A stretch of 64,000 nt of DNA, taken from assembly GCA_965116495.1 (NCBI GenBank), contig OZ220696.1:2048001-2112000 (forward strand). Reading direction: 5' to 3'. Below, piece after piece: positions 3,050 through 60,497 of the stretch. Position numbers and translations under genes: made by a program. The stretch is from Gammaproteobacteria bacterium (GTDB lineage Bacteria; Pseudomonadota; Gammaproteobacteria; Eutrophobiales; Eutrophobiaceae). Every line of letters starts with the position of its first letter. The first letter of the stretch is position 1. Below the pieces are notes generated by a model. It was not told the origin of the DNA. It did not search any database and was given only the letters and a program-made list of their open reading frames with translations.

Positions 3050-3180
3050 AATTAAGAATTAAAAATTACGAATTAGGAATGAATGTGCCGCCTGCGGCGG
3101 CTGTGTAATGTGAAAACTCCAATTCCCGATTCCTAATTCGTAATTCCTAATTCGTAATTCGTAATTCGTAATTCGTAATT
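3050..3180. repeat. Inverted heptamer (AATTACG/AATTAGG) tandem-repeat element
   Basis: Left arm aattacg/aattagg units, core gaatgaatgtgccgcc, right arm multiple taattcg/taattcc units. Same layout at 60355-60497. Confidence 0.85.
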
Positions 3181-5220
3181 CCCCCACTGGTCGCAACTGA
3201 GCCCGGTGCCACCTGGTAGTACGATGGTTGTCGTCGGTTGTTCTACGATAGCAGGGCCTGAAAGCCGGTTTCCCGGTTGCAGGGCAAGGCCGTCGTAGAC
3301 GGGCACCGTCATCAACCTGTTATCGAACCAGGCGGGGCGTTCCCCCTTGCGGGCATGGTCGGCCGCAGGTCCGCCGAGTTCGTGTTTCTGTGTTACCGGT
3401 TTTTTTGTGGCGCCCGTCGCGCTCAGGCGCAGGTTGATAAGTTCCACTTCCGCGTGGGGGAGACTGTAGCCGAAGCGATCATCATGGAGCCGGTGAAATT
3501 GAGTCACCAGTTGCTCCCATGCTGCAGTGTCCGCCGTGCCGGTATCGAAGCCGAGTACCTCAACCTCGTTGAACTGGCCCACATAACGCAGGTCAGCCGA
3601 GAAATTCAGAGTCACATCTGCGCCATCGACCTGCTCCTGCCTGAACGTGGCAAGCGCCATATCCCGCATGTTATGTATGGCTTCATTAATGATCCCGAAG
3701 TCCACCAGCGATCCGACCATGGCGCAGGTACGTATGTAAGTATGCTTCAAGTCCGACAGCAACATGCCGGCAGCGCAGAATACCGAGGATTCCCGCGGTA
3801 CCAGCAAGGTGTGGATACCGAGTTCCCGGGCAATGGGCACTGCGTGTATCGGTCCGGCGCCACCGGCGACGATCATGGCAAACTCGCGCGGGTCCAGCCC
3901 GCGCTGCACAGTGACCACCGTGACGGCATTGCTCATGATCGAGTTCGCCACCCGGTAGATCCCGTAAGCGGCGTCCGTGACGGACAGGCCCAGGGGGCCG
4001 GCAACCCTGCTCTCGATGGCGGCGACGGCTGCATCACGGTCCAGTTTCAGGGCGCCGCCGTGGAAGTAATCAGCATCCAGGTAACCCAGCACCAGGTCCG
4101 CGTCCGTCACCGTCGGCTCGGTCCCGCCGCGGCCGTAACAGGCCGGACCGGGATCGGCGCCGGCGCTGGCCGGCCCGACGTGCAACATCCCGCCGTCATC
4201 GACGCCGGCGATGGACCCACCCCCGGCGCCGACGGTGTGAATGTCCAGCATGGGCACCGCCACGTGGAAGCCGGCGACTTCGTTTTCCGATGTAACGGCG
4301 GCGCGTTCATCCTGTACCAGGGCAACATCAAAACTGGTGCCGCCCATGTCTACGCTGATGATATTCCTGTAATCGTGGGTGCGGCCATAGTGAATCCCGG
4401 CGCCGGGACCGCCGGCGGGTCCCGACAGCAGGGTATTGACGGCAAACCGGCTGGTCACTTTCGGCGACATGCAACCGCCGTTGGACTGCATGATGTTCAA
4501 CACGCCGCAAAAACCGTTTTCACCCAGGCGCGCCTCCAGCTTGTCCAGGTAGCGGGCCAGTGGCGGCCCCGTGTAGGAATTCAGCGCAGTCGTGCTGTGC
4601 CGCTCATATACCCGTATCTGCGGCAATACCTCACTGGACAACGAGATGTACACACCGGGCAACGCATCCTGCAGGATTTCCCGGGTACGCAACTCATGCT
4701 TCGGGTTGAGAAACGACCACAGGTAGGAGACCGCAACGGCTTCGACCCCGGCGGAGCGCAATACTTCGGCTGCCGCACGCACGTCTTCTTCCACCAGGGG
4801 AATTATAATTCGACCGTTGGCGTCTGTTCGTTCCGCCACCGTCAGGGTCAACGCCCGTTCGATCAAGACAGGTGGAGGCGCCTGTTCCAGGTCATAGCGC
4901 TCTCCCGTCTTCATCCCGCGCCGCAGGGCCAGCAGGTCACGGAAGCCCCGAGTAGTGATGAAACCGGTATTAGCGCCGGTGCGGGTAAGGACAGCATTGG
5001 TGGTGATCGTGGTGCCGTGGACGATTGTCTCCACCCGGGCAAGGAAATCCCGCAGTTCAACCCGGTTGTCCTGCGCGGCCTGTTCCAGTGCGGCAAATAC
5101 GCCCAGGCTGGGGTCGGCAGGCGTGGTAGGCGACTTGCAGATGCGCGTGCGGCCATTCTCATCACAGACCAGCAGGTCGGTGAAGGTGCCGCCGACGTCA
5201 ATGCCGATTTGGTATCTCAT
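3133..5220 (-). CDS. Hydantoinase A/oxoprolinase family ATP-binding subunit
   Basis: Begins MRYQIGIDVGGTFTD; HGTT, SGPAGG, DMGGTSFDV and GAGGGS motifs. ORF-track start at 5463 is too long. Confidence 0.93.
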   Translation of the reverse strand: MRYQIGIDVGGTFTDLLVCDENGRTRICKSPTTPADPSLGVFAALEQAAQDNRVELRDFLARVETIVHGTTITTNAVLTRTGANTGFITTRGFRDLLALRRGMKTGERYDLEQAPPPVLIERALTLTVAERTDANGRIIIPLVEEDVRAAAEVLRSAGVEAVAVSYLWSFLNPKHELRTREILQDALPGVYISLSSEVLPQIRVYERHSTTALNSYTGPPLARYLDKLEARLGENGFCGVLNIMQSNGGCMSPKVTSRFAVNTLLSGPAGGPGAGIHYGRTHDYRNIISVDMGGTSFDVALVQDERAAVTSENEVAGFHVAVPMLDIHTVGAGGGSIAGVDDGGMLHVGPASAGADPGPACYGRGGTEPTVTDADLVLGYLDADYFHGGALKLDRDAAVAAIESRVAGPLGLSVTDAAYGIYRVANSIMSNAVTVVTVQRGLDPREFAMIVAGGAGPIHAVPIARELGIHTLLVPRESSVFCAAGMLLSDLKHTYIRTCAMVGSLVDFGIINEAIHNMRDMALATFRQEQVDGADVTLNFSADLRYVGQFNEVEVLGFDTGTADTAAWEQLVTQFHRLHDDRFGYSLPHAEVELINLRLSATGATKKPVTQKHELGGPAADHARKGERPAWFDNRLMTVPVYDGLALQPGNRLSGPAIVEQPTTTIVLPGGTGLSCDQWGNYELRITNYELGITN

Positions 5221-10032: not shown

Positions 10033-10100
10033 TATCTGGACATCTATCTGGACAGTATCTGGACATCTATCTGGACAGTATCTGGACAATCCCGTATAAT
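10033..10100 (+). promoter_or_regulatory. Five TATCTGGACA direct repeats overlapping a sigma70 promoter of fic
   Basis: Repeats spaced 12/11/12/11 bp; TGGACA (10072-77)-N17-TATAAT (10095-100). Confidence 0.75.
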
Positions 10101-25436: not shown

Positions 25437-25958
25437 TCAGAGCATGTCACCCTGCCGGTACACGGGTGGTAATAGCTCTGTCGCTTCTGGCTGGCAAACT
25501 CTCAGATTCAGTTCTTGAAGTTTATCGCTTTTGTTGAGGATATTTCCATCCGTAGTGAGGAACTCCGCACAGTTCATCAGAAGCGCTGATGCAATATGGA
25601 TAGCATCAGCCGCTCCTTTGAGATATATCCCATCAACCCAGCGAAGCGCGCGAGCCTTTTCCATAATGGTGAAAGTAGGTTGAACCAGTCTAATCCCACT
25701 TTTACCAGAAGCTAGCAAACCATCATAGAAGCGCTTGATGTCATCAGGAGGATTAGGAACATTACGAATATGAGTACATTCAACAATCGATAATGACGAA
25801 GTCAGAAGATCAATTTTGTCATCCTTACCAGCCTTTATAAGTTGTCTGGTAAACCAGACATTACGTTCTGTCTTGTCCTCAAGCGACATCCCTGCCTTGT
25901 GCTTAGCCATATCGATAAACACGCACGCATCAATATAAACCCTGGGCATATCAGCCAT
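25437..25958 (-). CDS. PIN-domain protein
   Basis: VYIDACVFI, S.L..VE, DAIHIASA and FLTTD acidic PIN residues; start overlaps the upstream stop. Confidence 0.85.
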   Translation of the reverse strand: MADMPRVYIDACVFIDMAKHKAGMSLEDKTERNVWFTRQLIKAGKDDKIDLLTSSLSIVECTHIRNVPNPPDDIKRFYDGLLASGKSGIRLVQPTFTIMEKARALRWVDGIYLKGAADAIHIASALLMNCAEFLTTDGNILNKSDKLQELNLRVCQPEATELLPPVYRQGDML

Positions 25959-26772
25959 CTTGACGCACCTCCCTGATGAATTCTTCTGTTGACAGGTTTC
26001 CGGTATATTCTGGATACCTACCGACGAAAGCATCAATCCAACCTTCATCAAAATCCGGCGCCGGTCTGAAATCCGCAACCTGAATTGAGGCAATTTGTCC
26101 TCTCGCTCGATCTTCTGACACTTCGCCCTCAACAAAAATCACTGCTTCAGGTTCATGCAGTGTCTCGACTGCTGCTTGATACATATCTGGCGTAAAGAAA
26201 CAGTCAACTAGCGTCTTGGTTGAAAGTTCTCTTATAACCAGTTTTGGGGAGGCAGTTTCTTTGTAAAAAGCGTGGACGATACCCTGTATTTCCCCGTAAT
26301 AAGCTACAACCTGTGGCGTATCTTCAATAACTCTGATGGCAAATTCTTTGGTCAATTCGAACCAGTCCTCAGGTTCCTCATCCTGGTTTCCATAGAGACC
26401 AAATAAAACTTTCTCATCCGCATCGATAGGACTGGCAATCTGGGCATATTGCAGGCGAGTCGCAGGGCGAACCAACAAATCGATTTCAGGGTCGGAGTAA
26501 TCATTTGCCATGATGCTGTGAATAACACGGTTGCCACGATCAATGACTGCTGGCTCCAGTTCTCCGTCCCGTAAACAATCAAAATTCACTGAGTTATTCC
26601 CAAAATTAAGTGCAAGCCAACTCTTCGGGTCTTCGCCTATCCCGATGTCCTGATCGACTGCTATCAAGAACTTTAAGGTTTCCTTCACAACACGGCCAAG
26701 TTTGTCGAGCGGGACGCCAACTCGACCTTTGTTCAATTCAACTCTTAGTTTTAATTCATTCATGGTCTGCAT
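25951..26772 (-). CDS. Hypothetical protein coupled to the PIN gene
   Basis: 273-aa ORF with beta-rich C-terminal half; 8-bp overlap with the PIN gene. Confidence 0.75.
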   Translation of the reverse strand: MQTMNELKLRVELNKGRVGVPLDKLGRVVKETLKFLIAVDQDIGIGEDPKSWLALNFGNNSVNFDCLRDGELEPAVIDRGNRVIHSIMANDYSDPEIDLLVRPATRLQYAQIASPIDADEKVLFGLYGNQDEEPEDWFELTKEFAIRVIEDTPQVVAYYGEIQGIVHAFYKETASPKLVIRELSTKTLVDCFFTPDMYQAAVETLHEPEAVIFVEGEVSEDRARGQIASIQVADFRPAPDFDEGWIDAFVGRYPEYTGNLSTEEFIREVRQDG

Positions 26773-27978: not shown

Positions 27979-29505
27979 TCATAAACCCGATTCTTCTTTC
28001 AAACTTACATCCCCACTCATCAATTTTGGCAACAATGCGTCACGCAGGTTTTCAAGTATCTGAATTTGGGATTGATTTGAAATCATTTTTTCAAATAATG
28101 GAGTTACTTCAATTTCAAATTCCTGAATAACATTTTCTTGCGGTAACTTTACCGAATGTTCTTTAAAGGTGTCAGTCGTAATTGTATCAAAAACACTACC
28201 ATAGGCAGCTGACTGCAACCCATCAATTGAATGATCAACAAGCAAATAAGTAAAAAAATAAGAAGCTCCGAATTTTGGCTTTATCCCGTAATTTGATTGG
28301 CTGAATGCCATAGGCCCTGACACGATACCGTACTTTCCTACAGTGCCTCTTGCTGAAATGATAGTGGAATGTTTGGGGATTAATTTTGCTGAACTGTTTT
28401 TCAATCCCTCTACACTGATGGATTTTTCAGCAGAGGGGATTATGCCTTTGTGATTCACTGCAACGTCTTTGCCGGACACCCAGCCAACTTCCCCACCCCA
28501 ATACTCTGGAACAGACGTGCTTGGCGTGCCTCCTCCAACTAATTCAATGACATCATAAAGACTGAACACATCCCACTTTTCATTTTTATCTTCCGCAAAC
28601 CACTTTCTGAACAATGCCTGTGCCATGGCTTCCAGGGTTCTGTTCTGGCGGTGGAGCAGGTCTATTTTGTCGTCGAGGCTGGACAGGACTTCGGCGATGG
28701 CTTTTTGTTCGGGGAGTGGTGGCAGGAGAAATTGATATTCTTTAATTGCCGTAGGTGATGTATGTTTTATTGATGTTCCGCTAGCTGCGCCTACTACAAA
28801 CCAATGATAATCAGTGGTTCTTAATAACCAATAAATAAAATCCTGGTTTACAGTGCCTAATTCAAATTGCAATAATCCTATTCGTTGATTATGTAAGTAT
28901 GTTTTTCCAGTTTTGCTTTGGGGTACTTTTGCGGAGTAGCCAAGAGTATCCCCGTTTTTGCTCAGATCAGTCATCGTCACTATGACGTCATCTGCCTTCA
29001 AAATGTAATTTTGCGGAACTTGTCCGGTGAAATATTTTAGTTTCGATGACTTAAAACCACCACCTATTTTGAAATTGCCAGGAGTAACTAAAATTTTGTC
29101 ATTTTCTTGATCAGTAATAAATTGTCCTTTAAACGCATATCCATGTTTGACCTCTATCAAATCCCCCAACCTCACCTCCCTCCATCCCTCCGGCTGCCTC
29201 ATCTCCTCCTGCACCACCACATACTTCTCCCTGATCTTCTCCCTGAAACTCTCCGGTATGGCTTCCCAGTCCATAACGTCCACTGAGATCAGCAAATCAC
29301 TTTCTTCCAGATCTTCCTTGAGGTCATAAATCTCCATTGGAGTACAGTCGAATACGGCCAGGTCCAGGTCGGAGGTTTCTCTGGCTTTCCAGGTGACGCG
29401 GGAGCCGTAGGCCCAGACGGTTTTGTTAGGGATATGTTGTTTGAGAATGGCGTGGAGCAGGTCGAGTTGTTCCTGGTCCAGATCTATGAGTTTCTCTTTA
29501 CTCAT
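27979..29505 (-). CDS. hsdS: Type I R-M specificity subunit with N-terminal minimal nucleotidyltransferase (MNT) domain
   Basis: GS-x10-DLD motif in the first ~100 aa, then two TRDs and the conserved PPLPEQKAIA and LRDALLPKLMSG segments. Confidence 0.9.
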   Translation of the reverse strand: MSKEKLIDLDQEQLDLLHAILKQHIPNKTVWAYGSRVTWKARETSDLDLAVFDCTPMEIYDLKEDLEESDLLISVDVMDWEAIPESFREKIREKYVVVQEEMRQPEGWREVRLGDLIEVKHGYAFKGQFITDQENDKILVTPGNFKIGGGFKSSKLKYFTGQVPQNYILKADDVIVTMTDLSKNGDTLGYSAKVPQSKTGKTYLHNQRIGLLQFELGTVNQDFIYWLLRTTDYHWFVVGAASGTSIKHTSPTAIKEYQFLLPPLPEQKAIAEVLSSLDDKIDLLHRQNRTLEAMAQALFRKWFAEDKNEKWDVFSLYDVIELVGGGTPSTSVPEYWGGEVGWVSGKDVAVNHKGIIPSAEKSISVEGLKNSSAKLIPKHSTIISARGTVGKYGIVSGPMAFSQSNYGIKPKFGASYFFTYLLVDHSIDGLQSAAYGSVFDTITTDTFKEHSVKLPQENVIQEFEIEVTPLFEKMISNQSQIQILENLRDALLPKLMSGDVSLKEESGL

Positions 29506-29924
29506 TCTTCGTTGAGCATGGTTTCATAGATTTCTTCGGTATCCCGGATGAAACCTCCTACTTTGTCCAAGGCGGCTATGGCCTTTTCCATGCTGTAATC
29601 GTGAGCTGCGTCATTCCTGATCTTATTGTACTGAACCAGTCGCTTATGCACGTCTTTTTCGAAAAGCAAGTCTTCAAAAGCAGCACGGAAAATTGGGATT
29701 GGTGAGTTTCTCAGTTCAACCTTGCCATTTTCATCTTGCAGGTATTTCTTTATTTGCTTCCACAAGGCGTCATAGCAAATCTCGAAGCATTTAATGACGG
29801 AATTTTTCACGGCTCTCTGGTTGACTTCAGATAAGCCTTGCTCATCCAAGGTTGAATAACTTCCGTACTGTTCCTTTAGCTCATTGAGCGATTTCTCCAG
29901 TTTTTCGTAATTGATCCCGGTCAT
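29502..29924 (-). CDS. HEPN-domain protein (HI0074/HepT-like)
   Basis: IKCFEICY and RNDAAHDY (R-x4-H-x-Y); ATGA overlaps with both hsdM and hsdS. Confidence 0.87.
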   Translation of the reverse strand: MTGINYEKLEKSLNELKEQYGSYSTLDEQGLSEVNQRAVKNSVIKCFEICYDALWKQIKKYLQDENGKVELRNSPIPIFRAAFEDLLFEKDVHKRLVQYNKIRNDAAHDYSMEKAIAALDKVGGFIRDTEEIYETMLNEE

Positions 29925-31462
29925 GATGTTTCCTCCCATTGCACCTTCTCCAGGTTCTGCAAAATTCTCTTGTTCAACCGTTCTTCTTCAACAAGCTGTG
30001 TCTCGAGCTCCGTCTTCAACTCCTTAAACCTCGCCCCAAAGTCAAAATCATCTTCCTCCTCGGGCAAGCCGACGTAACGGCCGGGGCTCAGCACATAGTC
30101 CAGTTCCCGGATTTTCTCTATGGGTGTTGCGTGGCAGAAACCGGCGACGTCCTGGTAGTTGCCGTCCTTATTGCGCCACTGGTGGTAGGTGTCCGCAATT
30201 TTTCCTGTATCTTCAGCGGAAAATACCCGGGTGCGGCGGTTGATTAAATGCCCCAGGTCGCCGGCGTCTATGAACAGGATTTCACCGGCACGGTTGCGTT
30301 CGCCGTTATAGCCTTGCCGTTTGCCGGAGATGAACCACAGGCAGGCGGGTATCTGCGTATTGAGGAACAGTTTTGCCGGCAGGTTAACGATACAGTCCAC
30401 CAAACCGGCCTCTACGATGTTTTTGCGGATGACGTCCTCGTTGGAGGATTTGGAAGTGAGCGATCCTTTTGACAGCACGAAACCGGCCACGCCGCGGGGC
30501 GCCAGGTGGTGGATGAAGTGCTGCACCCAGGCAAAGTTGGCATTGCCTGGGGGTGGTGTGCCGTATCTCCAGCGACCATCGCCTGTTAGTTGCCGGCCGC
30601 TCCAGTCGCTGTCGTTGAATGGCGGATTGGCGAGGATGAAGTCTGCCTTGAGGTCGGGATGGACATCGTGCAGGAATGAGCCTTCCTTGTTCCACTTGAC
30701 CTGGGAGCCGTCTATATTGCGGATAGCCAAATTCATGCGGCACAGGCGGTAGGTGGTTTCATTGCTTTCCTGGCCGTAGATGGAAATGTCGTCGATTTTT
30801 CCCTGGTGGTTTTCCACGAATTTCTCGCTCATCACGAACATGCCGCCGCTGCCGCAGCAGGGGTCGAACACCCTGCCTGAGTAGGGTTCTATCATTTCCA
30901 CCAGCAGTTTCACGATGGAACTCGGGGTGTAGAACTGGCCGCCTTTCTTGCCTTCAGCCAGGGCGAATTCACCCAGGAAATACTCATACACCCTGCCGAG
31001 CACGTCTTTTGACTGTGCGCTTTGCTCAGCCAGGGCGATGTTGCTGATCAGATCGATCAGTTCCCCCAGGCTGGCTGAGGCCACGTTCATCCTGGCGAAT
31101 ACCCTGGGCAGGATGCCTTTCAGGGTTTGATTGTCCTTTTCTATCAGTTCCATCGCTTTATCCAGGATTTGACCGACGCTGGGTTGTTTCGCCTGTGCGC
31201 AGATGCGATTCCACCTGGCCTCCGGCGGTACCCAGAAAATGTTTTCTCCGACGTACTCGTCCGGGTCTTCCGGGTCGGCGAACTCGATGTTTGACAGTTC
31301 CTCGTAGCGGGTGAGGAATGAGTCCGAGATGTATTTGAGGAAGATCAGGCCGAGGACGATGTGTTTGTACTGGGCCGCGTCGATGTTTTTGCGCAGTTTA
31401 TCCGCGGTTTTGAACAGTTGGGCTTCCAGTCTTTCTGGTCCGGTGGAGTGGTTCTTTGCCAT
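29921..31462 (-). CDS. hsdM: Type I R-M m6A methyltransferase
   Basis: GQFYTP, DPCCGSGG and NPPF motifs. Confidence 0.96.
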   Translation of the reverse strand: MAKNHSTGPERLEAQLFKTADKLRKNIDAAQYKHIVLGLIFLKYISDSFLTRYEELSNIEFADPEDPDEYVGENIFWVPPEARWNRICAQAKQPSVGQILDKAMELIEKDNQTLKGILPRVFARMNVASASLGELIDLISNIALAEQSAQSKDVLGRVYEYFLGEFALAEGKKGGQFYTPSSIVKLLVEMIEPYSGRVFDPCCGSGGMFVMSEKFVENHQGKIDDISIYGQESNETTYRLCRMNLAIRNIDGSQVKWNKEGSFLHDVHPDLKADFILANPPFNDSDWSGRQLTGDGRWRYGTPPPGNANFAWVQHFIHHLAPRGVAGFVLSKGSLTSKSSNEDVIRKNIVEAGLVDCIVNLPAKLFLNTQIPACLWFISGKRQGYNGERNRAGEILFIDAGDLGHLINRRTRVFSAEDTGKIADTYHQWRNKDGNYQDVAGFCHATPIEKIRELDYVLSPGRYVGLPEEEDDFDFGARFKELKTELETQLVEEERLNKRILQNLEKVQWEETS

Positions 31463-31580
31463 GGTGTCAGATTATACTCCTTGTTGGTATAAAGATGGCT
31501 TATCCAGGAGATTCCTGCTTGCGCAGGAATGGTAGTCTCCTTTATGTATTTCTGCTTGGACAGGAATGGTGGTCTACTTA

Positions 31581-34500
31581 TTATGTTGTTCCGGTACTCC
31601 ATTCATCCGCCAGCAGCTCGGTTTGCCGTAGGATGTTCTCTGTAGCCAGCTTTTGCTGGTCGGGCGGATAGCCGTATTCCCGCAACAGGCGTCTCACGGT
31701 TGTCCTGAGTTTCGCCCGTGCGCTTTCTTTGATGGTCCAGTCAATCGATATGTTTTGTTTTACACGTTGCACCAGCACTTGGGCCAGGGAGCGTAAGGTA
31801 TCATCACCCATGACCTCCTTTGCACTCTCGTTGAGTATCAGGCTGTCATAAAACGCGACTTCATCATCCGACAAGCCCATGTCGGCCACTTTATCGTCCG
31901 ACACTTTTATCTCTTTGGCAAGCTGTATCAGTTCCTCAATCACCTGCGCAGTAGTCAGCAGATTGTTCCGGTATTTCCTGATGGCGGCTTCCAGCATCTC
32001 GGAAAACCTTTTGCCTTGGGCAAGATTCTTCCTTCTCCTGGTTCGCAATTCATCGTTCAGGATCTTCTTCAGCAGTTCGAGGGCAAGGTTCTTGCGTTTC
32101 ATGCCCTGGATTTCCTGCAGGAAGTCATCGGAAAGAATAGAGATATCCGGCTTCTTGATGCCGGCGGCCTCAAATATATCGAGCACGCCTTCCACGACGA
32201 CCGCCTTGTCAACAATCTGCCGTATGGCGGTTTCCACCTCGTCCAGGCTTTTGCCGCTGCCTTGCTGTTCAAATTTTTTCAGGCGCGCCTTCACGGCCTG
32301 GAAAAAACCCACCTCGGCCTTGATCGCCATGGCCCTGGGGTCCGGCACGGACAACGCAAACGCTTTTTCCAGCAGGCCGACCTCCCTGGTAAATCGCTCC
32401 TTGCCGTTTTCCAGACCAAGAACGTGCTCCTCAGCTTCCAGGATAAGGCCCAGCTTTACCTGTGTGTCGGCAGAAAAATAGGTCTTGTAGGCAAAACGAT
32501 CAAACATGGCCGCGACGACGGCGTGTTTTTCCAGCATTTTTTCCACTGCCTGCTCCTGCTCAAAAGCCGGCGCGCCCCTGCCATTGCTTTGGGTATAGGA
32601 AACCAGGGCTTGTTTCAAATCTGAGGCAATACCGATATAGTCCACAACCCTGCCACCGGGCTTGTCCTTGTACACCCGGTTGACCCGGGCGATGGCCTGC
32701 ATCAGGCTGTGCCCGCGCATGATTTTGTCAAGGTACATCGTTGTCAGGCAGGGTGCGTCAAACCCGGTCAGCCACATGTCCCGCACGATGACGATCTGCA
32801 ATGGGTCGTCGGGGTCCTGAAAACGTTCCCGTAGCGTCTTGCGCTCCGTTTTGCTGGTACTGTGCCGTTGCCACGTCGCGGGGTCGCTTGAAGATGAGGT
32901 CATGATCACCTTCACCTGTCCCTTGCTTTTATCTTCATCGTGCCAATCGGGACGCAAGCCAACTATTTCATCGTACATGGCCACCGCGATCCGGCGGCTG
33001 GTGGCAACGATCATGGCCTTGCCGGCAAACGCCTCCTGCCTGGCATCAAAATGCTTGAGGATATCCGTTACGACCGATTTCACTCGTTCCTCATGCCCTA
33101 TAATCGCTTCCTGCTTGCTCCATTTTACCTTTGCCTTCTCCGTTGCCGTTGCTTCTTCGCTTTCGGTGATACCCTCAACCTCGGCGTCCAGTTCCGCTTT
33201 TTCCTCTTCCTCCAAATGCACTTGCACCAACCGGGATTCGTAATACACCGGCACAGTCGCGCCATCTTCGACGGCTTGTTCTATGTCGTAAACGTCGACG
33301 TAATTGCCGAAGACCGCCGGGGTCGATGCATCTTCCTTTTCAATGGGCGTGCCGGTAAAACCGATGAAAGTCGCTTCGGGGAGGGCATCCCGCAGATACT
33401 TGGCAAAACCATAATTGGTTTTCGCACCGTCCTTGACAAAGTGGGTCCGGGCGCCGAAACCGTACTGGCTGCGGTGCGCTTCATCTGCGATGACAATGAT
33501 GTTGTGTCGGTTGGACAGCAGTTGGAAGTTTTCACTGCCGTCTTCAGGCAGGAACTTCTGGATGGTTGAGAAGACGATACCCCCTCCCGCGGTCTGCAAG
33601 AGTTGTTTCAACTGCGCACGGCTTTCCGCCTGTTTGGGAACCTGCCTGAGCAGTTCCTTCCCCGCGATAAAAGCATCGAATAACTGATCGTCAAGGTCAT
33701 TACGATCGGTAATGACAACGATAGTCGGATTGTTCATCTCCCGGTGTACGACCAGCAGGCCGGCGTAAAATACCATGGACAAGGATTTGCCACTACCCTG
33801 CGTGTGCCAGACTACCCCCGCCTTGCGGTCTCCCCTGGGTTGGCCTTTGACTCCGGGCAGGTTGTATACCCCGGGATCTTCCTCGACGTTCTCTCCGGAT
33901 GAGGCCCTGATAGTGGATTTAACCGCTTCCTTCACCGCGTGATACTGGTGGTATGCCGCTACTTTCTTGATAGTTTCAATACTTATCTGGCCGCTGGCCG
34001 GGTCTTCCTGTTTCACTTTCTCAAAGACGGAAAAGTGGCGAACCAGCTCCAGTAACACGTCCGGTCGCAGCATACCTTTGATCAGCGTCAACAGTTGCGG
34101 CGTCGTGTTGGGATCTTCCTTTTTCCCATCCACGGTCTTCCACGCCATGAACCGGCTCCAGCCGGCAGTCACGGAACCGGCTTTTGCATCCAGGCCGTCT
34201 GAGGCAACCAGCACACCGTTGTAGCAAAACAGGCTGGAGATTGTCTCTTTGTACGTTTGCAATTGGTCAAACGCTTTCCTCGGAGTCGCATTCTCATCGG
34301 CCGGGTTCTTCAATTCGATGACGACCATGGGCAGGCCGTTCACAAACAGGATAATATCCGGGCGTTTTGTCACGCCTGTTCCATGACCGGAAAGAGGTTT
34401 GTTTTCCGTTACGGTAAACTGGTTGCAGACTACGAAATCATTATTAAGCGGGGTCTCAAAATCAATCAAACGCACTTTGACCCCGATTGTTTCACCGTCT

Positions 34501-34793
34501 TTCTGCCGGTCTTCCGTTACACCTTCCCTCAGCATCTCATGGAACAGTTCGTTGCTTGCAACGGGATTCTGACCGGCGAGGGCGAGCGCCCGCCTGCGTG
34601 CCTGCTCTCTGATCTCATTCGGGATGGCCGGATTCAGTTTGTCAATCGCTGCTTGCAGACGTGTGCCCAGGACAACGTCGGAGAAGTCGTGTCTTTCAAA
34701 CTCCTGTGCTTCCGGGGACAGGTATAACCAACCCTGGCGCTCCAGGAGTTCCACGGCTAACTGTTCAACGTCGGACTCGTAGAGGGAGGTCAT
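31581..34793 (-). CDS. hsdR: Type I restriction subunit R
   Basis: RPD...IELK nuclease motif; HTQGSGKS, DEAH, FTGTP and QAIARVNR helicase motifs. Confidence 0.96.
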   Translation of the reverse strand: MTSLYESDVEQLAVELLERQGWLYLSPEAQEFERHDFSDVVLGTRLQAAIDKLNPAIPNEIREQARRRALALAGQNPVASNELFHEMLREGVTEDRQKDGETIGVKVRLIDFETPLNNDFVVCNQFTVTENKPLSGHGTGVTKRPDIILFVNGLPMVVIELKNPADENATPRKAFDQLQTYKETISSLFCYNGVLVASDGLDAKAGSVTAGWSRFMAWKTVDGKKEDPNTTPQLLTLIKGMLRPDVLLELVRHFSVFEKVKQEDPASGQISIETIKKVAAYHQYHAVKEAVKSTIRASSGENVEEDPGVYNLPGVKGQPRGDRKAGVVWHTQGSGKSLSMVFYAGLLVVHREMNNPTIVVITDRNDLDDQLFDAFIAGKELLRQVPKQAESRAQLKQLLQTAGGGIVFSTIQKFLPEDGSENFQLLSNRHNIIVIADEAHRSQYGFGARTHFVKDGAKTNYGFAKYLRDALPEATFIGFTGTPIEKEDASTPAVFGNYVDVYDIEQAVEDGATVPVYYESRLVQVHLEEEEKAELDAEVEGITESEEATATEKAKVKWSKQEAIIGHEERVKSVVTDILKHFDARQEAFAGKAMIVATSRRIAVAMYDEIVGLRPDWHDEDKSKGQVKVIMTSSSSDPATWQRHSTSKTERKTLRERFQDPDDPLQIVIVRDMWLTGFDAPCLTTMYLDKIMRGHSLMQAIARVNRVYKDKPGGRVVDYIGIASDLKQALVSYTQSNGRGAPAFEQEQAVEKMLEKHAVVAAMFDRFAYKTYFSADTQVKLGLILEAEEHVLGLENGKERFTREVGLLEKAFALSVPDPRAMAIKAEVGFFQAVKARLKKFEQQGSGKSLDEVETAIRQIVDKAVVVEGVLDIFEAAGIKKPDISILSDDFLQEIQGMKRKNLALELLKKILNDELRTRRRKNLAQGKRFSEMLEAAIRKYRNNLLTTAQVIEELIQLAKEIKVSDDKVADMGLSDDEVAFYDSLILNESAKEVMGDDTLRSLAQVLVQRVKQNISIDWTIKESARAKLRTTVRRLLREYGYPPDQQKLATENILRQTELLADEWSTGTT

Positions 34794-34885
34794 AGATCGT
34801 TAACTCTTGCTAATGCAGGTTTTGGGGACAGACACATTCTGTCCCCAGCCTGAGTTACATTTTGTCGGGGTGCGCAGTACCCTGA

Positions 34886-36130
34886 TCACGAGGGTTTGGC
34901 CCAGAGAAATTGCAGCGGCAAAGCGTAGAGCTTGTCCCCGAAAGGCATAACCCTGTCGCCGGTGTACAGTAACACACCACCGGCAAACTTCTCACCCAAT
35001 GCTTCCTCGAGCTTGCGCAGCCCTTTGAAGTCGGAATTGACAACTGTGCCGGAAGCCTTCACTTCAACACCTGCCGCGGCGAGCGCGCTGCGTTGTATTA
35101 CAATATCCACTTCGACGCCATAGCGGTCGCGAAAGTGATGGAAAGTATGGCGCTGCTGATGCGCGCTGGCCTGCCGCTTCAGTTCCTGCAACACGAAGGT
35201 CTCGAGAATATGACCGAATAAAGGCCGATTCGCCGACAGCGATACCGCGTTCAGGTTCAACAACGCACAGATAATCCCCGTATCACAGAGATGTATCTTC
35301 GAGGTCTTTACCAGCCGTTTCAAGTGGTTATTATGCCAGGGTGGAATTCTTTCCAGCAAAAACATTTTTTCCAGGAGCGTGAGGTACTTCCCTATTGTCA
35401 ACCTGTTGAGTTGAAAGGAAGAGGCCAGACCATTCACGTTTAACAGTTGCGCGGTTTGCGCCGCCGCCAGTTGCAGCAACCGCGGCAGGGTTTCAAGAGA
35501 TTGAATTTCCATAATTATTGACGCATCGCGCTCAATCAGGGCTTCGATATAGGTCTGGTACCAGTTGGCTCGTCTGGTCGGGGTACGCTGCAAGGCAGCC
35601 GGGTAGCCTCCCGCCACCACGCGCCTGATCACCTGCTCGTCAAACGGCGGTTCCTCACGTATGAAGGAATCCGAGGCAAACAGGAAATCCAGAAATCGGG
35701 GCGCAGTCCGTTCAAGTTCATTCTGTGAGAAAGGATGCAATCTTACTATGTCCATACGACCGGCCAGCGATTCTTTTGTGCGGGTCATTTGCAACAGGTT
35801 CACCGAACCGGTCAGTATGAAACGGCCCGCGGTGCGGTCGTTATCAATGGCCAGTTTGATAGATGGAAACAGTCCGGGCACCAACTGCGCTTCATCCAGG
35901 ATCGTCCGGTCCGGCAAAGATTTTACAAAACCGAGCGGGTCTTCTGTGGCGTAACTGCGCGTGCCATCATCGTCAAAAGTCGAGTATTGGTAACCCTCGG
36001 ACTCCCCTATTGTCTGAGCAAGCGTCGTCTTGCCGCATTGGCGCGGTCCCTGTATCAGAACAGCAGGAGAATCAGCCAGCGCCTCCATCAGGCGCGGTTC
36101 AATATGACGTTGGTAATGATTGTTGTTCAT
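34886..36130 (-). CDS. AAA+ ATPase (AAA_14) with DUF4143 C-terminal domain
   Basis: GPRQCGKTT, ILDEAQ, LTGS, ESLAGR and GGYP motifs; C-terminal EVD...EVK. Confidence 0.9.
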   Translation of the reverse strand: MNNNHYQRHIEPRLMEALADSPAVLIQGPRQCGKTTLAQTIGESEGYQYSTFDDDGTRSYATEDPLGFVKSLPDRTILDEAQLVPGLFPSIKLAIDNDRTAGRFILTGSVNLLQMTRTKESLAGRMDIVRLHPFSQNELERTAPRFLDFLFASDSFIREEPPFDEQVIRRVVAGGYPAALQRTPTRRANWYQTYIEALIERDASIIMEIQSLETLPRLLQLAAAQTAQLLNVNGLASSFQLNRLTIGKYLTLLEKMFLLERIPPWHNNHLKRLVKTSKIHLCDTGIICALLNLNAVSLSANRPLFGHILETFVLQELKRQASAHQQRHTFHHFRDRYGVEVDIVIQRSALAAAGVEVKASGTVVNSDFKGLRKLEEALGEKFAGGVLLYTGDRVMPFGDKLYALPLQFLWAKPS

Positions 36131-36156
36131 AGGGTAAAGTTATTAATCTGTTATGC

Positions 36157-36327
36157 GGCTGATTATCAGTCAACCCCATGGCTGATTGTTACTCTACCTC
36201 ACGGCTGATTGTTAGTAAACCCTATGGCTGATTGTTACTCTACCTGCGGCTAATTGTTACTGCACCCTACGGTTGATTGTCAGTTATAACTGCGACTGAT
36301 TGAAAACTTTACAGGAAAGCTGATTGT
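36157..36327. repeat. Tandem array of ~23-bp units with GGCTGATTGTTA core
   Basis: Units start at 36157, 36180, 36203, 36226, 36248 and 36271; degenerate units at 36294 and 36318. Confidence 0.9.
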
Positions 36328-36338
36328 GGCGGGTATTG

Positions 36339-36347
36339 TGATATAAT
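36339..36347 (+). promoter_or_regulatory. Extended -10 promoter for yajC
   Basis: TG-a-TATAAT 30 bp upstream of the yajC ATG. Confidence 0.55.
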
Positions 36348-36751: not shown

Positions 36752-36786
36752 AAATTCCTAATTCCTAATTCTTAATTCCTAATTCC
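36752..36786. repeat. Heptamer (AATTCCT) tandem repeat
   Basis: About five aattcct/aattctt units. Confidence 0.8.
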
Positions 36787-41656: not shown

Positions 41657-41899
41657 ATGATACCTGTTACTTCACCCGAAAATCTGGGAAAAGTCCTTCG
41701 GCATTACAGAAAAAACCGGGGATTGACACAAGTTGAAGCAGGCGGCAAATTCAACCTGCCCCAGAAAACCGTTTCCACGATAGAGGCAGGAACTGCAGGT
41801 ATACGATTGGACACGGTATTTAAATACATGTCGGCGCTTGGCCTGGAAATGCATCTGGAACCCAGGAACAAACCGTCCGATGATGAGGCGCTCTGGTAA
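41657..41899 (+). CDS. hipB: HipB-like antitoxin
   Basis: XRE HTH, C-terminal Trp, TAATG overlap with hipA. Confidence 0.88.
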   Translation: MIPVTSPENLGKVLRHYRKNRGLTQVEAGGKFNLPQKTVSTIEAGTAGIRLDTVFKYMSALGLEMHLEPRNKPSDDEALW

Positions 41900-43191
41900 T
41901 GGCGTCATCCCTGTTCATTTACATGAACGGCCATGAAGTTGGCGAATATATCCAGCGGAGCGGTGGTGTTCACGAACTTGTTTACAACGATTCATGGCTC
42001 GAACTCAGGGGGGCGCTTCCACTCTCCCTTTCTTTACCGCTTACGGACAAGCGACATAAGGGCGACGTGGTATACAACTATTTCGACAATATGTTGCCCG
42101 ATAGCATGGAAATTCGAAATAGAATCCAGGCCAGGTTCGGCGTCAAAACCAACCAGCCTTTCGATTTGCTCTCATGCATCGGTAAGGACTGCGTCGGCGC
42201 CATCCAACTCACAAACGGACGAACACAGATTGATGTAAAGAGAATTGAAGGCATACCTCTGAACGAAAAAGAGATCGCAGAAGAACTCAGAAACTACAAA
42301 GCGCTGCCGTTAGGCATGTCAAAAGACAGGGAATTCAGGATCTCCATTGCCGGTGTCCAGGAAAAAACCGCATTGCTCATGCACAAAGGACAATGGCAAC
42401 GTCCTGTGGGCGCAACGCCTACTACACACATCCTGAAATTACCGATTGGGAGAATTGACCATGCAGGTATCGACCTGTCGGGCAGTACTGAAAATGAGTG
42501 GATATGCCTCGAGATATTAAGGAGCTTCGGCCTGCCTGTTGCTGCCGCTCGTGTTGAGAAGTTCGAAGACATCAAAACGCTTGTGGTGGAGCGTTTTGAT
42601 CGGAAGGTTGCCGATAACAAATCCTGGATCATCCGCCTTCCGATAGAAGACATGTGCCAGGCAAACGGGATTGCGCCTGCCTTGAAATATGAAAATGAAG
42701 GCGGTCCCGGTATTACAAAAATCATGGAGCTACTCAGGTCTTCACTTTATGCGGAAGAAGACCGGTTCCGGTTCATGCAATCCGTCTTCCTGTACTGGTT
42801 GCTTGGCGCTATTGACGGCCATGCAAAAAACTTCAGTATTTTCCTGTACCAGGGCGGACGCTTTGAGCTGACTCCTTTCTACGACGTCATCTCGGCATAC
42901 CCACTCGCTGAGAAGCGCCAGGTTGAATACAGGGACTTGAAAATGGCGTTGGCCCTGCGCAGCAAAAATGTACATTATGCGTGGCATGAAATCATGCCGC
43001 GGCACTGGTTCAGTCATTCGGCAAAAGTCGATTTCCCCAAGGTACAGATGCAACAAATCATAGAGGATATCGCGGACAGGCTGGATTCAGTAATCGACAC
43101 GGCGGCAGCAAACATTCCCGCGGATTTTCCGGCCGGGGTAGCCGAACCGATTTTTGCCGGCATGAGAAGGTGTATGGAACGAATCACCTGA
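41899..43191 (+). CDS. hipA: HipA kinase toxin (E. coli HipA-like)
   Basis: LSLSLP, RISIAGVQEKTAL, TTHILK, ERFDR and DGHAKN motifs. Confidence 0.95.
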   Translation: MASSLFIYMNGHEVGEYIQRSGGVHELVYNDSWLELRGALPLSLSLPLTDKRHKGDVVYNYFDNMLPDSMEIRNRIQARFGVKTNQPFDLLSCIGKDCVGAIQLTNGRTQIDVKRIEGIPLNEKEIAEELRNYKALPLGMSKDREFRISIAGVQEKTALLMHKGQWQRPVGATPTTHILKLPIGRIDHAGIDLSGSTENEWICLEILRSFGLPVAAARVEKFEDIKTLVVERFDRKVADNKSWIIRLPIEDMCQANGIAPALKYENEGGPGITKIMELLRSSLYAEEDRFRFMQSVFLYWLLGAIDGHAKNFSIFLYQGGRFELTPFYDVISAYPLAEKRQVEYRDLKMALALRSKNVHYAWHEIMPRHWFSHSAKVDFPKVQMQQIIEDIADRLDSVIDTAAANIPADFPAGVAEPIFAGMRRCMERIT

Positions 43192-60354: not shown

Positions 60355-60497
60355 TTAATAATTACGAATTAGGAATTACGAATTAGGAATTAGGAATGAA
60401 TGTGCTGCGTGGGGCGGCAGTTTTTCGCACGCAAAAATAAACCGTACATCGACATAACGCCCCCCAATTCGTAATTCTTAATTCCTAATTCTTAATT
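60355..60497. repeat. Inverted heptamer tandem-repeat element (second copy)
   Basis: aattacg/aattagg units, core gaatgaatgtgctgcg, then aattcgt/aattctt/aattcct units. Confidence 0.85.

Follow-up and report, generated by a model that had tools for sequence, protein, structure and literature searches.

What are the tandem repeats of about 23 bp for that stand directly in front of a predicted NTPase-nuclease gene at the edge of a genomic island in this gammaproteobacterium? The gene was found in the window, by which we mean the whole analysed stretch of 64,000 nucleotides, and its product matches the Pfam families AAA_14 and DUF4143 and the PADLOC model PDLC04790 (E 9e-159), that is, PDC-S01. 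In the consulted parts of the respective sources, PDC-S01 is a candidate defence that comes fourth in frequency across prokaryotes, with about 39,000 copies, validation being pending for most such candidates (PMC12988326), is defined by guilt-by-embedding (10.1101/2024.01.29.577857) and has its family function given as 'Unknown' (PMC3424549), and one PDC-S01 gene, whose coding sequence was cloned without upstream DNA, was not among the systems protecting against T4, T5 and T7 (10.1101/2024.09.26.614923). The PADLOC definition is a single gene and arrays are not part of it. In the consulted portions of the openly accessible literature on DUF4143, COG1373, PDC-S01 and AAA_14 with repeats, we met no description of an array in front of the gene, of an operator code or of sites carried by phages. 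From the sequence comparisons given below, the repeats are probably the encoded protein's own binding sites on its own predicted promoter, forming an autoregulatory operator.

Features of the locus, in positions of the window
Feature	Position	Strand	Remark
Type I R-M operon	27979..34793	-	co-oriented, downstream of the ATPase gene
Nucleotidyltransferase-HsdS in-frame fusion	27979-29505	-	NTase at HsdS N-terminus
HEPN-like (NTase_sub_bind) gene	29502-29939	-	inside R-M operon
hsdM	29921-31462	-	
hsdR	31581-34793	-	starts 92 bp downstream of ATPase gene
PDC-S01 / COG1373-type gene, 414 aa	34886..36130	-	STAND-like NTPase, winged helix and PD-(D/E)xK nuclease (predicted)
Nuclease motif E340-x-D342 ... 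E356-x-K358	35057..35113	-	conservation and Can2/Card1-type nuclease fold
Predicted winged helix, about residues 214-281	35288..35491	-	structure model
Putative recognition helix, residues 243-255	35366-35404	-	R243 and L244 change together with bases of the array
Conserved R125	35756-35758	-	95% conserved
Walker B D79-E80	35891-35896	-	motif conservation
Walker A (G28-T35)	36026..36049	-	motif conservation
Poor -10-like CAGATT	36145..36150	-	17 bp from TTGACT, 14 nt before ATG; L001 has TATATT at equal distance
-35-like hexamer TTGACT (unit 1)	36168..36173	-	proximal promoter candidate
-10-like hexamer TAGAGT (variable half, unit 2)	36191..36196	-	17 bp from TTTACT; weak, 8/12 consensus matches
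-35-like hexamer TTTACT (variable half, unit 3)	36214..36219	-	distal promoter candidate; close relatives have TTGACT in same role
Tandem array, 8 units, period 22-24	36157..36329	-	putative operator
Extended -10-like motif TGTGATATAAT of divergent yajC-secDF operon	36337..36347	+	island edge just left

A structure model of the protein (pLDDT 83) has the layout of STAND NTPases (NTPase core, helical domain and winged helix), and its residues 1-292 were best matched by 2QEN (Z 12.0, rmsd 5.2, 253 aligned) and 2FNA (Z 11.4, rmsd 4.5, 252 aligned), followed by NLR resistosomes (Z 10.3-10.9), with the Orc1/Cdc6-DNA complex 2QBY as a weak match (Z 5.6, rmsd 8.5). Residues 265-411 matched Can2/Card1-type nucleases (Z 5.6-6.7), and within this modelled fold the catalytic D and E-x-K of a PD-(D/E)xK enzyme are present, so that the protein is a predicted nuclease. 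Searching the PDB by sequence gave matches at the level of the P-loop only, and no Rep initiator family was found among the top 25 Pfam families matching 60 members (E<=0.05). A separate single-sequence model of the winged helix (pLDDT 55) was left out as poor. Given that the Walker A and B motifs, E340-V-D342 and E356-V-K358 are each conserved at 99-100% and R125 at 95% (215-218 aligned homologs), the NTPase and nuclease functions appear to be under selection. The preliminary description had called the protein an AAA+ ATPase, which agrees with the AAA_14 match, although the best structural matches would place it closer to STAND-type NTPases than to classical AAA+ proteins; the model has a predicted winged helix, in keeping with the likely HTH region that it had pointed out, and its PD-(D/E)xK-like EVD..EVK tail coincides with the conserved nuclease residues.

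On the gene's strand the core of the array reads TAACAAT(C/T)AGCC, and the units start at 36157, 36180, 36203, 36226, 36248, 36271, 36294 and about 36318, with lags of 23, 23, 23, 22, 23, 23 and 24, in keeping with the six good and two degenerate units of about 23 bp described earlier. The lag-22/23 score was 36/46, whereas none of 2000 dinucleotide shuffles scored above 25, and the DNA contigs from four sequencing runs (of one study) that span the array showed 0 differences. The array is separated from the start codon (ATG at 36130) by 26 bases in which, as had been noted before, no Shine-Dalgarno-like run is seen by eye. Tandem Repeats Finder (TRF) reported a period of 23 (76% matches, score 106) and, as the better one, a period of 46 (85%, score 164), which confirms the higher-order period of about 46 bp in which units 1/3/5 and units 2/4 had been seen to resemble each other. 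This period arises because -35-like and -10-like hexamers 17 bp apart alternate between units. The variable halves, of 9-11 nt, recur as promoter-like hexamers within arrays and across relatives. Elsewhere in the window an exact repeat of the same period 23 was observed (10033-10088; 2.4 copies with 11-12 bp subunits), its sequence being unrelated to the array, and intergenic heptamer runs at 36753-36786, 3050-3181 and 60360-60497 had very high depth in the sequencing runs.

Promoter matches were scored using a matrix drawn up by hand, not taken from a tool. In the window's array a strict scan gave no candidate above threshold, and TTTACT-17-TAGAGT and TTGACT-17-CAGATT are both weak; in the window's subclade, the hexamers lie in the variable halves, with TTGACT alternating with TA-n-A-n-T 17 bp further on. 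A different arrangement was found in 33 loci with Pro at residue 244, in which the array ends at the start codon. There, base -1 of the core is A in the last unit (27/33), G in the next (22/33) and mostly T further out (37/63), which spells TAC(A/G)AT and TTGCAA, 17-18 bp apart and 6-9 nt before the start codon, so that leaderless transcripts are predicted for these loci. Over 118 loci, the best promoter match by the hand-made matrix ended 5-9 nt before the start codon in 67, and a Shine-Dalgarno match was found in 17. The phased direct repeats thus overlap the predicted promoter of their cognate gene, as iterons do.

If the repeats belonged to the protein, one would expect them also upstream of its homologs. 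From 304 loci, 277 had a match, and after removal of 6 without usable Walker A, 9 duplicates and 6 with less than 150 usable upstream bases, 256 were scored, an array being called at lag 22/23 with p<=0.01. Arrays preceded 141 of the 168 homologs of at least 40% identity (6/6 at >=70%, 75/89 at 50-70% and 60/73 at 40-50%), as the check proposed in the preliminary description had anticipated, and were rarer below 40% (30/52 at 33-40% and 8/36 lower still). In the control regions of the homologs of at least 40% identity an array was called downstream in 1/152 and in coding stretches in 0/168. The lags in the 118 registered loci were 23 (243 times), 22 (106 times) and 24 (3 times), and the largest arrays among the relatives have 11 units. 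The 4.3-Mb genome itself holds 26 divergent DUF4143 family matches (tblastn 22-42%); four of these paralogs carry arrays of their own (one of them at p = 0.03) whose cores differ. In many paralogs without arrays the start codon is closely preceded by palindromes and -10 boxes. At L806 (G311:C82, upstream of 2963) a pair of the 23-bp type was observed some 50 bp in front of a PDC-S01 gene that belongs to another subfamily, so that operators stack in bacteria too.

Scans of whole genomes also tie the tandem core to this gene family. Strong tandem copies of the window's core are found at one place in the 4.3-Mb genome and in 7 of 126 genomes of the order, of which 5 have them directly before a homolog of at least 73% identity; in the other two (G341 and G352) they immediately precede hsdR, again at the yajC site, and the ATPase gene is missing. 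These orphan arrays are at G341:C132:8908-8964 and G352:C1:224937-224970, and in G352 one variable half now matches TATAAT perfectly, next to what seems to be a short remnant of the ATPase gene. Among 301 genomes of the class all 10 matches to the general pair sit at 4 PDC-S01-type genes, and no second, regulon-like site was found in these or in the own genome. Copies of the core 3' of the gene were found in 2/102 loci. A simple role in site-specific restriction was considered and rejected, given that the host genome shows no avoidance of the site (65 observed versus 72 expected).

Whether the core changes together with the protein was examined in the 118 loci that remained after 58 of 176 arrays, not registrable on the anchor motif, had been excluded. 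When mutual information was computed for 414 x 23 pairs of residue and base in an initial set of 88 loci, the highest value belonged to residue 244 and DNA position -1, and the top ten also included 243 with 0, 244 with -2 and 242 with -2. In a co-change test on the 118 loci, the tree was computed from an alignment that excluded the winged helix. Of the scored columns, residue 244 came first for both -2 (11/12 changes shared, z = 4.7) and -1 (z = 3.7); at position 0 the first rank went to residue 243 (z = 4.1), and at +2 to residue 233 (z = 5.3). All three residues lie within the predicted HTH, while for -3 and +7 the top columns fell outside the winged helix. At -2, T tended to accompany P, V or H at residue 244, G tended to accompany N or E, C to accompany K, and A to accompany L (7/10). 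In a held-out prediction on 32 later loci the same residues were not distinctive (residue 244 at rank 22 for -2 and 238 for -1, residue 243 at rank 121 for 0), and none of the independent-pairs sign tests reached 0.05 (median p >=0.125, the pairs being too few). The covariation of core and HTH that had been anticipated for this family is therefore seen as tree-level co-change at residues 243 and 244 and is not significant in the held-out and independent-pair tests, and a residue-to-base code of the winged helix is suggestive.

The gene had been described as lying upstream of an R-M operon, and in the window hsdR, hsdM and hsdS do follow on the same strand, but this linkage is not general: an hsd homolog was present in the locus for 6/6 homologs at >=70% identity, 9/72 at 50-70% and 0/69 at 40-50%. 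In the window's subclade the promoter of the array probably also reads into hsdR. An arrangement similar to the NTase-HsdS fusion with a HEPN-like gene was observed at loci L161 and L244. The array and its gene lie at the right edge of the island, which is bounded by the yajC promoter and, on the other side, by a gene that we take to be formate-dehydrogenase-like; among the matches listed, these two are directly adjacent in 8/16 loci of the genus. Within 36318-36347, unit 8 of the array occupies the -35 region of the candidate yajC-secDF promoter, through which the encoded protein could also touch the expression of secretion genes. In L001 and L002 a decayed piece resembling the 5' part of hsdR was seen by eye beyond the array, some 100-190 nt ahead of the start of the ATPase gene, with an intact hsdR after the gene, hinting that the cassette of array and gene entered or was duplicated at the start of hsdR. 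Contigs from the sequencing runs show at 34793-36050 a second variant of the gene, about 90% identical and with a shorter hsdR junction like that of L160, from a co-occurring relative. Other genes in the window include a HipBA-type pair (41657-43191, +) and, at the left end of the island, a PIN-domain gene with an uncharacterised upstream partner (25437-26772, -).

The pair CAATYRGMCG at period 22-23 was also found in 56 viral loci (41 clusters), of which 1 had a PDC-S01-type gene in its flank, and when the whole records were searched for 44 of the 56 loci, DUF4143 was found in 1/43 records and in 0/8 of those at least 90% complete. Among the matches listed in a spacing scan of viral contigs, 19/90 clusters fell at 22-23 out of 28 spacings (p = 1.7e-5), and among those listed with non-identical halves 12/47 did so, compared with 4/62 for a permuted-motif control. 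Bases that the pattern leaves free agree with the consensus of the family (TT at -3/-2 in 23/82 versus 4/102 half-sites; matrix p = 7e-8), and the pairs were outside long open frames in 25/40 on-phase cases and in 4/55 off-phase cases of the heterotypic scan. Judged from the off-phase rate, background makes up roughly a quarter of the on-phase matches. Replication was weak for the heterotypic pair (12/75, p = 0.007; flank score p = 0.2), the Lys244-type scan gave 2/20 loci at period 22 (few loci), and the motif of a second clade was not enriched in the viral scan (2/47 clusters). The viral contigs L676, L683, L694 and L695 carry half-sites of the Lys244 type at period 33, among which degenerate copies are interspersed, and their flanks show no ATPase homolog.

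In one phage family (L337, L340, L359 and L703) a 33-bp palindrome lies 11-13 bp from the pair and scores 20.7-26.6 bits on a matrix made from bacterial PDC-S01 upstream regions only, best fitting the box of another PDC-S01 subfamily; this matrix test, on one phage family, was devised after the match had been seen by eye. As controls, the matrix found 1-2 sites in the own 4.3-Mb genome and matched 0/55 off-phase loci at p<=0.01. L337 comes from a tailed phage whose record includes genes for a polymerase, a helicase, a DarB-like protein and a tail fibre. When viral flanks were compared more broadly, by shared 14-mers, with the upstream regions of other subfamilies, the 13/39 loci covered gave no clear excess, and for 5 loci tried the search for cultured relatives that span the phage sites found none. 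It is possible that the viral pairs stem from decayed cassettes. What is new here is that gene-less, mostly intergenic viral pairs at a spacing of 22-23 are enriched among the matches listed, a result that was partly replicated.

Several other readings of the repeats have to be weighed against an operator. That the array is a neutral minisatellite grown by slippage of a promoter unit, or a set of sites for an unrelated host regulator, is very unlikely: the unit number does differ in 8 of 36 pairs of at least 90% identity, but period and core are the same across phyla at 40% protein identity, positions outside the registering motif are conserved (-3 at 1.1 bits and 0 at 0.84 bits), and an unrelated regulator would be hard to reconcile with the missing second site in the genome scans. 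The minisatellite, which the preliminary description had held out as the alternative, is thereby largely refuted by the homolog arrays and these scans. Repeat-spacer arrays for guide RNAs (CRISPR- or TIGR-like) have unique variable spacers and a structured or processed RNA, and the conserved core with a variable half in each unit resembles them. A repeat-structured leader, which had also been suggested earlier, or a guide RNA for the protein is nevertheless extremely unlikely, since the array has a folding z of -0.4 and no Rfam match at E<=1, the variable halves recur as conserved -35/-10-like hexamers and are not unique spacers, and the predicted start lies behind the array in most relatives, so that the array would not be transcribed.

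The position of the array next to hsdR in the closest homologs, and its retention before hsdR in the two genus relatives that have lost the ATPase, would fit a C-protein-like control of the R-M operon, with the array promoter mainly timing hsdR expression. A C protein is consistently positioned upstream of a restriction gene, whereas here this holds in the closest homologs and is lost further out, where most homologs still have arrays, and the nuclease motif is kept at 99-100% in the aligned homologs; we regard this reading as highly improbable, and control of hsdR by the array can be a local side effect of a self-operator. Somewhat less remote, but still improbable, is that the array is a platform or target at which a STAND protein assembles and is switched on, for instance to nick, to load, to mobilise the cassette or to act at an origin-like element. 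STAND proteins are, in the consulted parts of two papers, activated by ligand-driven multimerisation (PMC4381067, PMC6468293), complexes of Orc1/Cdc6 with DNA are weak structural matches, and the longest arrays exceed what repression needs. Against this stand the intact sites that the host retains for its own nuclease, the enrichment and not depletion of the pair in phage contigs among the matches listed, the scarcity of core copies after the gene and the divergence of the family matches in the genome, which gives no hint of recent self-copying.

The autoregulatory operator, in which the phased sites for the encoded protein proposed in the preliminary description are retained, is thus the reading that the comparative data (homolog arrays, core co-change and promoter overlap) support. 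Copies of the protein would dock head-to-tail through the winged helix on sites two helical turns apart, cover the -35 and -10 elements and repress their own gene, possibly by assembling cooperatively with ATP in the way of other STAND proteins. The docked row would be a non-cutting state in which the nuclease is held off; the docked state must spare DNA because the host keeps its own sites intact.

Plasmid iterons with Rep autoregulation (P1 RepA, R6K pi) are direct repeats about two helical turns apart that are read by winged helices and overlap their own promoter. The array resembles them in being a set of phased direct repeats on the predicted promoter of the cognate gene, whereas the window's protein is an NTPase-nuclease without a Rep match, is chromosomal and has many paralogs, each with its own core. 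Orc1/Cdc6 proteins have origin recognition boxes repeated beside their own gene; they share with the window's protein an ATPase with a winged helix and repeated sites beside the gene, but the structural match is weak, and a C-terminal nuclease and tandem 23-bp phasing on a promoter set the present case apart. In the model the NTPase and winged-helix core is best matched by STAND proteins, a group represented by MalT, Avs, NLRs and the archaeal 2QEN and 2FNA, and MalT is described in the consulted text as a transcription factor of this group whose activation proceeds by multimerisation (PMC4381067). The window's protein differs in that its 414 residues include no separate sensor domain, its own winged helix appears to read DNA, its effector is a predicted nuclease and the promoter overlap suggests repression. 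For Thermus TT_P0211 a 6.6-fold rise with plasmid and Argonaute is given in the consulted part of the source (PMC4406477); no array was linked to this gene and the rise was not counted as evidence.

Given that phages are enriched for the pair and not depleted of it, docking plausibly neutralises an anti-phage nuclease. That the protein acts against phages and that the gene-less phage pairs are decoys keeping it docked is a tentative proposal which we would put somewhat below even; a titrated autorepressor could also raise its own level, with no obvious benefit to the phage, which counts against decoys. A further and more doubtful proposal is that the genomic DNA itself serves as an antitoxin: the array would store a sensor-less STAND nuclease docked and inactive, phage damage to the host DNA or a DNA mimic would free the nuclease, and phages would counter with gene-less intergenic copies of the operator, one family placing mimics for two PDC-S01 subfamilies next to each other. 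The logic would be analogous to the DNA-gated guard Hailong, in which, according to the consulted part of the source, a DNA molecule keeps the effector off until a phage disturbs it, the molecule being an enzyme-made single-stranded oligo-dA and the effector an ion channel (PMC13434031). Here, in a proposal drawn from sequence, the inhibitor would instead be genomic double-stranded repeats.

The putative cognate operator and the partial recognition code offer the first direct assays for PDC-S01, namely of binding, repression and nuclease activity with and without the array. The gene-less pairs in the intergenic DNA of phages point, independently though indirectly, to an importance of the protein for phages, and they single out candidate phages and a possible anti-defence strategy made of DNA only. 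If the decoy proposal is true, it would be a cis-DNA anti-defence against one of the commonest candidate defence genes, and the residue-to-base code would predict which decoy blocks which protein.
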